This document shows positions 34,185-34,660 of a stretch of 47,823 nt of DNA, piece by piece. The notes below the pieces were generated by a model, which worked only from the letters and a program-made list of their open reading frames with translations, searched no databases and had not been told where the DNA came from. The translations under genes and the position numbers were made by a program. Each line of letters starts with the position of its first letter. The stretch's first letter is position 1. Origin of the DNA: Bacteroidota bacterium (lineage in GTDB: Bacteria; Bacteroidota; Bacteroidia; Chitinophagales; CAIODY01); contig JBDKJJ010000103.1 in NCBI GenBank assembly GCA_039796635.1, positions 1 to 47,823 on the forward strand, given 5' to 3'.

Positions 34185-34256
34185 TGCGGAGTAGAGCAGA
34201 GGTAGCTCGTCGGGCTCATAACCCGAAGGTCAGTGGTTCGAGTCCACTCTCCGCTA
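34185..34256 (+). tRNA. tRNA-Met (anticodon CAT), initiator type
   Basis: Manual cloverleaf: acceptor UGCGGAG/CUCCGCU, D arm GAGC-AGAGGUA-GCUC, anticodon arm UCGGG-CUCAUAA-CCCGA, T arm AGUGG-UUCGAGU-CCACU. Three consecutive G:C pairs next to the anticodon loop and an unpaired 1:72 are initiator hallmarks. CCA is not encoded. Confidence 0.88.
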
Positions 34257-34264
34257 CTAGCGAA

Positions 34265-34297
34265 AGAGAAAATCAAAAAAATGATTTTCTCTTTTTT
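34265..34297 (+). terminator. Hairpin plus T-run directly after the tRNA (terminator-like), ending 5 nt before the GIY-YIG ATG
   Basis: Stem AGAGAAAATCA / TGATTTTCTCT (11 bp), A6 loop, then TTTTT. Confidence 0.55.
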
Positions 34298-34302
34298 GTT
34301 TC

Positions 34303-34560
34303 ATGGAGTTTGTAGTTTATATACTTTATTCAGAAAAATTCAATAAAACGTATGTTGGTTTTACTTCTAATTTAATTGGAAGAATAAAATCACATAATGA
34401 ATTAGGTAATGGTTGGACAAAATCATTCAGACCATGGAAATTGGTATATACGGAAATGTTTAATAATAAAAATGATGCTATGAGCAGGGAAAAATATTTC
34501 AAAACTGGTATTGGCAGAATTGAAAAAGATAAAATTATCCAACAATTTTTTATTACTTAG
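34303..34560 (+). CDS. Stand-alone GIY-YIG nuclease domain protein (85 aa)
   Basis: VYILYS...YVGFTSNL..R...HN...........W.LVY.E.F.....A..RE..FK contains the GIY / YIG elements and the conserved Arg and Glu of the URI/GIY-YIG fold. Confidence 0.85.
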   Translation: MEFVVYILYSEKFNKTYVGFTSNLIGRIKSHNELGNGWTKSFRPWKLVYTEMFNNKNDAMSREKYFKTGIGRIEKDKIIQQFFIT

Positions 34561-34612
34561 TCGGGCTCATATCCGCCAAAGGCGGACAGTGGTTCGAGTC
34601 CACTCTCCGCTA
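34560..34612 (+). repeat. Partial duplicate of the tRNA-fMet 3' portion (anticodon-stem/loop block plus T-arm/acceptor block)
   Basis: GTCGGGCTCATA (34560-34571) equals 34209-34220. CAGTGGTTCGAGTCCACTCTCCGCTA (34587-34612) equals 34231-34256. The 10-nt ACCCGAAGGT between the blocks is replaced by the self-complementary TCCGCCAAAGGCGGA. Confidence 0.85.
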
Positions 34613-34617
34613 CAGAA

Positions 34618-34660
34618 GCGGCAACATCATAATTATCATTGATGTTGCCGCTATTTTTTT
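34618..34660 (+). terminator. Strong Rho-independent terminator
   Basis: 12-bp stem GCGGCAACATCA / TGATGTTGCCGC followed by TATTTTTTT. Confidence 0.75.

Follow-up and report, generated by a model that had tools for sequence, protein, structure and literature searches.

A putative minimal nuclease and hairpin cassette beside tRNA genes of Bacteroidota and other bacteria

Directly downstream of an intact initiator tRNA gene of a Chitinophagales bacterium (Bacteroidota; GenBank assembly GCA_039796635.1, contig JBDKJJ010000103.1), we find a unit of about 350 bp that combines a stand-alone GIY-YIG nuclease open reading frame (ORF) with a second, partial copy of the tRNA, interrupted by a short GC palindrome. 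The 47,823-nt stretch of DNA that was analysed is referred to as the window. Homologous loci suggest that the unit is composed of a terminator before the start codon, a gene for a nuclease of 80–95 amino acids (aa) and a palindrome-interrupted tRNA-like copy. The cassette appears to be widespread, being present beside the tRNA genes of many bacteria, and has the look of a minimal element that is selfish or promotes recombination. We see an even chance that these units form a family of minimal, ~350-bp nuclease and hairpin cassettes in tRNA gene duplications, which persist and amplify by break-induced recombination between the tRNA-derived repeats.

Architecture of the cassette and its nuclease

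The arrangement in the window is real and lies far beyond chance. All elements that a first-pass annotation, made from the sequence, had listed between 34185 and 34660 are present, at or within 1–3 nt of the positions it gave. Its layout stands, whereas three of its lengths had to be corrected. The series begins with an intact initiator-type tRNA-Met(CAT) gene (34185–34256, plus strand; Rfam RF00005, 66 bits; 34185–34257 according to ARAGORN), in which the initiator hallmarks can be read: a GGG:CCC anticodon stem, a 1:72 mismatch and A11:U24. An A/T-rich, terminator-like hairpin of 13–14 bp with a T-run follows (34262–34298, plus strand) and ends about 5 nt 5' of the ORF start. Its arms (34263–34275 and 34282–34294) are 13 nt long and 100% complementary, and the terminator scan reported 14 pairs and the T-run; 11 bp had been noted before. 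The 85-aa stand-alone GIY-YIG nuclease ORF occupies 34303–34560 (plus strand), and the G that ends its TAG stop codon is also the first base of the tRNA remnant. This remnant, GTCGGGCTCATA (34560–34571, plus strand), represents the anticodon-stem 5' strand and the anticodon loop and is identical to gene positions 25–36 at 12/12 nucleotides. The 15-nt GC palindrome TCCGCCAAAGGCGGA (TCCGCC-AAA-GGCGGA; 34572–34586, strandless) then replaces the anticodon-stem 3' strand and the variable loop. Behind it, the T-arm, acceptor 3' strand and discriminator plus one extra base (34587–34613, plus strand) match gene positions 47–73 at 27/27 nucleotides, one more than the 26-nt block first described. A strong terminator-like hairpin, with a perfect stem of 13 bp instead of the 12 bp given earlier, closes the unit together with its T-run (34617–34660, plus strand; arms 34617–34629 and 34640–34652).

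The 12/12 and 27/27 blocks are the sole further exact tRNA 12-mers in the window. By a back-of-envelope estimate, an exact repeat of 27 nt would be expected by chance about 1e-12 times within 400 nt, and the pattern TCCGCC-N2-8-GGCGGA occurs twice in the window vs 0.00 times expected from shuffles. Neither Rfam nor ARAGORN recognises the second copy as a tRNA. The window holds no further GIY-YIG ORF. Upstream of the tRNA-fMet gene lies metG in divergent orientation, and a single cassette unit lies downstream. As first described, the ~350-bp unit carries only the GIY-YIG ORF and no integrase. A group I intron or known small RNA was rejected as an explanation, as Rfam searches (E ≤ 10 on the window region; gathering threshold for ten loci) returned tRNA only. 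An intron in the anticodon loop is also at odds with the upstream tRNA, which is complete and not split into exons.

By sequence and fold, the protein belongs to the GIY-YIG superfamily and to its Slx1/UPF0213 lineage. It matches Pfam PF01541 with 62.4 bits (cut-off 22.6; E=5e-17) through a single domain spanning residues 3–68. The ORF is intact, and the catalytic residues Y6, Y17, G19, R27, H31, N32 and E63 are all present and are invariant in an alignment of 30 homologues. A profile search of the sequences in the PDB yielded the UPF0213 entries 1zg2 (2e-7) and 1ywl (2e-6), with the SLX1 entries 7wme and 7cq2 next; the identity to 1zg2 measured only ~29%. The AlphaFold (AF2) model has a predicted local distance difference test score (pLDDT) of 93. 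Its Foldseek neighbours are 1zg2, Slx1 (6seh, 7cq2, 4xm5) and At-HIGLE, with E values of 1e-4 to 1e-2, and I-TevI and UvrC appear near noise, at E values around 2. In the matched Slx1 structures the protein is bound to branched and 5'-flap DNA, in keeping with a hairpin as substrate. Fold and conserved hairpin together would predict structure-selective cleavage of branched, flap or stem-loop DNA. We infer that the protein acts as a nuclease on such a substrate, and that the cassette is mobile.

The domain had initially been described as of homing-endonuclease type, an assignment that we replace, as the protein is Slx1/UPF0213-like and has no DNA-binding domain. The group I intron endonuclease model TIGR01453 scores 14 bits vs a cut-off of 56. 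I-TevI and the Seg proteins combine an N-terminal GIY-YIG domain, a linker and a C-terminal DNA-binding domain in ~200–250 aa, whereas this protein has one domain and 85 aa. NCBIfam, PHROGs and PADLOC gave sub-threshold, domain-level matches only. Among the window ORF and its relatives, dN/dS (the ratio of nonsynonymous to synonymous divergence, dS) ranges from 0.06 to 0.25, indicating purifying selection. The tandem ORF copies of one relative (locus L081) are dS 0.37 apart, and both are intact.

With regard to expression, 78 of 95 full ORF copies are preceded by a terminator-like hairpin and T-run, which end a median of 8 nt 5' of the ATG. A dedicated promoter does not fit into this space, as had been suggested for the window, and the simplest interpretation, and a fair one, is low-level read-through from the promoter of the tRNA. 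Phage homing-endonuclease genes are tightly controlled, and expression by read-through would resemble this. A candidate Bacteroidota –7 box, TACATTTG (34166–34173, plus strand), was read from the sequence 11 nt 5' of the window tRNA. It fits TAnnTTTG, which we take to be the Bacteroides promoter consensus; the sigma-70 scan addresses another promoter type.

Linkage to tRNA genes and a palindrome that follows the protein

At E ≤ 1e-10, a profile of the family matched ~2,000 clusters of proteins (50% identity level). Close homologues, 80–95 aa long, number in the hundreds and are found mainly in Flavobacterium and other Bacteroidota, several genomes encoding at least two, and the hosts of distant homologues include Ignavibacteria, Chlorobi and Parcubacteria. 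One weak match was obtained in 50,697 phage records and two relatives in 2.9 million viral contigs, and the family is nearly absent from the plasmids searched too. A phage- or plasmid-borne origin is thus unsupported. A scan of one genome per species located at least 514 encoding sites. The locus counts given here refer to the best 80 of these, a set rich in Flavobacterium, and the control set consists of 80 loci of ~5 kb around metG from other Bacteroidota (400 kb in total).

An intact tRNA gene on the same strand is directly adjacent in 68 of the 80 loci: upstream in 58 (within 150 nt in 55), at or inside the 3' end of the ORF in eight, and on both sides in two. No tRNA on the opposite strand was found in any of the 80. 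Among the control loci, any tRNA was present in 6/80 and a GIY-YIG gene in 0/80. The ORF 3' end always enters tRNA or tRNA-like sequence, and the stop codon is often the TAG of the D-arm motif TAGCTC. The expectation that homologous small GIY-YIG ORFs would be systematically flanked by a full tRNA and a partial or disrupted copy was thus borne out in this set. The adjacent tRNAs are chiefly tRNA-Met(CAT), initiator-like in those that were read, and tandem identical tRNA-fMet genes are common in these genomes. Remoter homologues adjoin Ser, Arg, Phe, Cys, Val, Asn, Pro, Glu and Ala tRNAs and, in one case, a transfer-messenger RNA (tmRNA), so that the specificity for tRNA-fMet proposed at first has to be given up. 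The tmRNA case comes from a metagenome-assembled genome of Magasanikbacteria (L076, 1471–2264), in which a distant homologue lies ~130 nt 3' of the tmRNA gene; neither a partial copy nor a hairpin was detected at this locus.

The sequence 3' of the homologous stop codons usually runs from a 5' remnant of the local tRNA, ending at A37 (CTCATA/TTCATA), through TCCGCC-N2-6-GGCGGA-C to the T-arm and acceptor 3' strand and a terminator. In about 60 of the 95 full ORF copies the hairpin starts 11–19 nt past the stop codon. The 300 kb of GIY-YIG loci contain 98 exact copies of the hairpin motif and the 400 kb of control DNA three, a ~40-fold enrichment per kb. One control metG locus without a visible GIY-YIG gene (L144, 5180–5300) also holds decayed tRNA-like sequence with such hairpins: near the locus end, two exact copies and one imperfect copy of the TCCGCC-type hairpin lie within 110 nt. 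This stretch may have been left behind as an orphan, or may belong to the margin of a cassette beyond the fetched DNA.

The same palindrome sits at non-homologous positions in copies of fMet, Val, Asn and Phe tRNAs. It replaces the anticodon-stem 5' strand in a tRNA-Val copy of a Parcubacteria genome, the anticodon loop and 3' strand in tRNA-Asn copies, and the entire D-arm in tRNA-Phe copies. Second hairpins elsewhere stand in place of the T-stem 3' strand and acceptor strand, or within the T-loop. The protein clade associated with tRNA-Arg has a different palindrome, CCTGCC/GGCAGG, as a pure D-loop insertion; ignavibacterial tRNA-Ser loci carry CATCCCGA/TCGGGATG, and two further loci carry CCCTTCCC/GGGAAGGG. 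Across isotypes and phyla, the palindrome type therefore follows the protein clade and not the tRNA, a qualitative comparison with no correction for phylogeny. A conserved palindrome that travels with the protein clade and sits differently in different tRNAs points to a functional module. The middle of the tRNA copy, previously regarded as an arbitrary, target-destroying change, is better described in these terms. Moreover, the remnant and hairpin of the window differ at two positions from those of L081 unit 1, at an ORF dS of 0.35, which suggests that the hairpin is a selected module and not debris.

Perfectly complementary variant stems occur beside the canonical one in the same genomes (TTCGCC/GGCGAA in L017, TACGCC/GGCGTA in L024 and TCCGAC/GTCGGA in L056; a qualitative observation). 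Together with the variable 2–6-nt centre, they favour a hairpin over a fixed duplex site, and the variable centre itself seems to argue against a fixed dimer site. Two other origins of the palindrome were considered and rejected. Pairing of the hairpin with the acceptor 3' strand as a minihelix mimic fits the window but not the Flavobacterium acceptor stems that accompany the same hairpin. Local fold-back (P-nucleotide-like) duplication does not account for the recurrence of the main type in unrelated tRNA contexts. In a tRNA-Arg(CCT) copy (L049, 1853–1995), the D-loop insertion consists of 15–19-bp arms, CCCGCCCGACCGAAA ... TTTCGGTCGTTCGGGCGGG, around a 68-nt A/T-rich centre, so that the palindromic module can reach the size of a miniature inverted-repeat transposable element. 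Disrupted copies can also pass tRNA detectors, as seen for a tRNA-Val copy (L060, 401–480; Rfam 44.7 bits) and for a copy that ARAGORN calls 'tRNA-???' (L013, 1332–1408). Such copies probably lead to false or odd annotations of tRNAs in genomes of Bacteroidota and the candidate phyla radiation.

The T-arm copy equals the local tRNA at 27/27 nucleotides in 28 of 63 cases, and its mean identity is 22.2/27 to the local tRNA vs 17.7/27 to non-local ones. Since the 44 loci compared carry 28 different tRNA 3' segments, the copy evolves in concert with its neighbour. The duplicated 3' half described initially is therefore present, but the idea that the element carries it along loses ground: local duplication or gene conversion appears to fit at least as well.

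Recombination at the cassette and competing explanations

At least two ORF copies or fragments are present in 25 of the 80 loci, mostly as tandem arrays with a unit period of 350–480 nt. Some array ORFs are pseudogenes (L005), and many arrays terminate in a 3'-truncated ORF. On one complete chromosome (OY970294.1; L028, 450–1330), at least eight identical ORF-less units of 113 nt, each made up of hairpin, T-arm copy, terminator and short spacer, are interleaved with five GIY-YIG units. The ORF-less units look like a non-autonomous derivative amplified beside the gene, and L019 has units that resemble them. ORF-less pseudo-tRNAs, consisting of positions 1–37, the hairpin and a decayed T-arm, also sit among intact tandem tRNA-fMet genes. 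Other loci show a mirror form, in which a promoter is followed by a hairpin-bearing 5' tRNA fragment, the ORF and an intact tRNA that contains the stop codon. The mirror form appears to be connected to the standard one through exchange on one side or the other of the hairpin. The layout of a single insertion, as originally drawn, holds for the window unit and has to be revised for these tandem and mirror arrangements.

Close relatives of the window share the metG/tRNA-fMet synteny and vary in their units: one, one plus 12 or ~35 nt of the next ORF, or two plus a truncated third. The downstream gene differs in each of four close relatives (L081, L083, L001 and the window), the flank being a SEC-C protein, a phosphoribosyltransferase, another gene, or 147-nt repeats and a 579-aa ORF. 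The second unit of L081 is a mosaic that changes lineage at the 3' edge of the hairpin, after the hairpin loop and before the T-arm, and the array of L014 ends exactly at the 5' edge of the hairpin position. Many metagenome contigs stop in or just before tRNA/ORF arrays. Array ends, mosaic junctions and contig breaks may thus be the marks of a recombination hotspot, and the metG/tRNA-fMet locus appears to be a synteny breakpoint.

The flank in the window has peculiarities of its own. Directly 3' of the second terminator of the cassette, a 147-nt tandem repeat (34787–35152; 2.5 copies, 88% matches) occupies the position of the differing flank genes of the close relatives. Every copy contains an identical 33-nt imperfect palindrome, TTCGTTGTTCAAAAAAGCAAACAATCGAAGAAC; the repeat overlaps only a spurious-looking 80-aa ORF and is absent from all 167 fetched loci. 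The second exact match to the hairpin pattern, TCCGCCGAATAGGCGGA (36116–36132), lies in frame within the minus-strand ORF of 579 aa, where it is translated as SAYSAD. In the extended N-terminus of a distant methionyl-tRNA synthetase (MetRS; L141, ~2501), a similar palindrome codes for SATAD. These in-frame palindromes may be due to chance or may be palindrome insertions into genes.

We propose the following mechanism. The nuclease would be made at a very low level, via read-through from the tRNA promoter. Being structure-selective like Slx1, it would cut the extruded hairpin in the tRNA-like copy or its junction of single strand and duplex; folded tRNA-gene DNA may be an alternative target. 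The hairpin and the single-stranded flank that results from replacing one strand of a tRNA helix would serve as substrate or anchor. Breaks would be repaired by recombination among the tRNA-derived repeats. Such repair could maintain the identity of the partial copy with the local tRNA, make tandem arrays grow and shrink, flip the hairpin between upstream and downstream tRNA copies and rearrange the downstream flank. Occasionally it would copy the cassette into other tRNA genes, with one intact tRNA kept by selection.

A more far-reaching version, which we put forward only tentatively, is that the nuclease and its 14–20-nt GC palindrome form an autonomous recombinogenic or mobile unit of ~350 bp with specificity from DNA structure, not sequence. 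The hairpin, and perhaps a cloverleaf of the displaced strand in a heavily transcribed tRNA gene, would be the target. Through tRNA homology such a unit could colonise any isotype, even tmRNA, always leaving one working tRNA, and the palindrome itself might be transplanted between tRNA copies. We know of no smaller autonomous insertion sequence.

Several observations weigh against recombination-driven cassettes. Neither an empty allele nor a demonstrably recent insertion was found in the MetRS-based searches. Here, a search of metagenome contigs with the MetRS N-terminus returned only relatives of ≤72% identity lacking the metG/tRNA-fMet synteny, and the closest MetRS homologues (L164, 89% identity; L165, 75%) have no tRNA beside metG. 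Among Flavobacteriaceae, L005 and two sets of metagenome contigs have the cassette at one and the same locus, era/tRNA-fMet; its site in the lineage of the window is metG/tRNA-fMet. Identical proteins on many contigs have the era/tRNA-fMet context every time, so that there is no evidence for recent transposition. This residence at the same locus looks like long vertical inheritance more than frequent mobility, and could be a sign of host function. Breakpoints at the hairpin edge are known from three loci only. The main-clade stem is conserved in sequence and does not covary, which may leave room for a sequence-specific reading of the palindrome as a duplex. Shared ancestry could be part of the reason why hairpin and protein vary together. 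With 6 bp, the stem is short for extrusion as a cruciform, so that cutting would need single-stranded DNA.

Classical homing, the model of the first-pass annotation, is an unlikely alternative. It would consist of a sequence-specific cut in the intact tRNA gene of cassette-free alleles, around the segment that the hairpin replaces, and copying by double-strand-break repair with tRNA sequence as homology arms, the hairpin only immunising the displaced copy. In line with this, the disrupted segment always destroys a tRNA helix, units of mixed lineage occur in L081, and ORF-less pseudo-tRNAs built of positions 1–37, the hairpin and positions 48–74 resemble short-patch conversions. The exact arm of 27 nt has about the minimum length for RecA-dependent recombination, which speaks for homing as well. 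A precedent is the phage enzyme SegB, which cuts tRNA genes (PMC13096335). However, the adjacent intact tRNA retains the supposed target, so that a cassette locus would not be immune. The protein is a catalytic domain of 85 aa without a DNA-binding module, and its fold is that of structure-selective Slx1, not of I-TevI. Immunisation alone leaves unexplained both the conservation of the palindrome across isotypes and phyla and its tracking of the protein clade, and the missing empty alleles in the MetRS-based searches count against homing too.

We regard a domesticated, host-serving or RNA-level role as improbable. Here the nuclease and a hairpin-bearing tRNA-like RNA would act in tRNA or mRNA metabolism, for example as a processing or quality-control enzyme, as a decoy or autoregulatory RNA in the manner of type III toxin–antitoxin systems, or through a disrupted tRNA that blocks mRNA cuts by RNase P or RNase Z. 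Such a role would suit the strict co-orientation and apparent co-transcription with tRNAs, as well as the residence at the same locus, under purifying selection, in several contig sets. The ORF-less repeat arrays beside the gene recall ToxI-type arrays, and in the mirror form, with its stop codon inside the intact tRNA, processing by RNase P would compete with translation. Prokaryotic Slx1-like proteins have been suggested to act in RNA metabolism (PMC1564403). On the other hand, the side of the ORF on which the hairpin lies depends on the arrangement, being 3' in one and 5' in the other, and this sits uneasily with a fixed element of an untranslated region. Pseudogenised units, truncated end ORFs, variable copy number and flank rearrangements bespeak dynamics at the DNA level. 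The PADLOC matches are weak and confined to the domain. We also know of no GIY-YIG enzyme with RNase activity, which counts against an RNA-level role.

Another reading, which we consider very improbable, takes the unit for a miniature integrative element or a satellite that depends on a tyrosine or serine recombinase acting in trans, with the crossover in the T-arm/acceptor and the GIY-YIG gene as cargo. The direct repeat of a tRNA 3' segment is a classic signature of attachment (attL/attR) sites, and each of the two arrangements is a circular permutation of the other, which a circle recombining on either side of the hairpin would produce. Nevertheless, neither in the window nor at the loci with ORFs or called genes listed do the units contain or adjoin an integrase gene, and the flanking genes in relatives are housekeeping genes. 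The cargo is invariably the same gene, its 3' end is fused into the tRNA-like copy, and the family is nearly absent from viruses and plasmids. Least credible of all is a decayed tandem tRNA duplicate beside an unrelated small ORF: tandem identical tRNA-fMet genes are indeed common, but the comparative data contradict it, as the same ORF family, junction and palindrome recur in dozens of genera and several isotypes, and the partial copy and hairpin are far better conserved than the synonymous sites of the ORF.

Relation to known systems and significance

The closest precedent is SegB, the free-standing GIY-YIG homing endonuclease of phages T4 and T6. The gene lies in a tRNA gene cluster, the enzyme cuts inside tRNA genes at a motif that is the reverse complement of the T-loop, and it drives the recombination-dependent tandem amplification of a segment with tRNA and segB, in arrays that include truncated nuclease copies (PMC13096335). 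The two systems share a GIY-YIG gene among tRNA genes, tandem arrays and truncated nuclease copies. SegB is larger, phage-borne and of the I-TevI/Seg lineage, whereas the cassette protein is chromosomal, Slx1/UPF0213-like and, at 85 aa, a catalytic domain only. SegB carries a C-terminal DNA-binding region. The cassette in turn comes with the conserved palindrome and the interrupted copy of the tRNA; the part of the SegB account consulted (PMC13096335) mentions neither. The amplification of tRNA and segB, as described there, indicates that such a process exists, and by analogy the cassette system may work somewhat like SegB.

With Slx1 and the UPF0213 proteins (YazA/YhbQ type; PDB 1zg2, 1ywl, 6seh and 7cq2), the cassette protein shares the minimal GIY-YIG core, and these provide its best sequence-profile and structural matches. 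To our knowledge, bacterial UPF0213 proteins have no established cellular role. A linkage of UPF0213 or Slx1 proteins to tRNA genes, hairpins or tandem arrays is not reported in the open-access literature searched. Prokaryotic stand-alone members have been described as the GIY-YIG domain in its minimal version (PMC1564403).

When comparing the cassette with integrative elements that target tRNA genes, the common features are a direct T-arm/acceptor repeat and a tRNA that is intact after insertion. In contrast, the cassette has no integrase, measures ~350 bp vs kilobases, and is marked by a palindrome-interrupted repeat, tandem arrays and a mirror form. Repetitive extragenic palindromic (REP) sequences and REPINs with their RAYT genes, as well as the Rickettsia palindromic elements, likewise consist of a short GC-rich palindrome at several sites that is tied to one small nuclease-type gene. 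Unlike in the REP/REPIN–RAYT systems, the cassette nuclease has a GIY-YIG and not an HUH/Y1 fold, and its palindromes of 14–20 nt are apparently confined to tRNA-derived sequence next to the gene. Type III toxin–antitoxin loci (ToxIN-like) are defined by an array of short RNA repeats, a terminator and the gene of a toxin, an endoRNase that processes the repeats. In L028, arrays of ORF-less 113-nt repeats with terminators precede ORFs, but most loci have none, and PADLOC matched no system. We came across no account of small GIY-YIG genes accompanied by disrupted tRNA copies or by hairpins in the open-access literature searched, and novelty is accordingly unproven.

If the proposed cassettes are what they appear to be, they would constitute a very large, overlooked class of minimal nuclease cassettes and offer the first cellular context for bacterial proteins of the Slx1/UPF0213 type. 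A bare GIY-YIG domain would be targeted by a DNA hairpin in place of a DNA-binding domain, and this pairing of a very small protein with a hairpin would be an attractive and easily tested system for structure-guided DNA cleavage. The family would also provide a chromosomal counterpart to the SegB-driven amplification of tRNA genes in phages. It would explain the tandem initiator-tRNA arrays, the pseudo-tRNAs and the assembly breaks in the genomes of Bacteroidota, and tRNA loci would be hotspots of nuclease-driven rearrangement.

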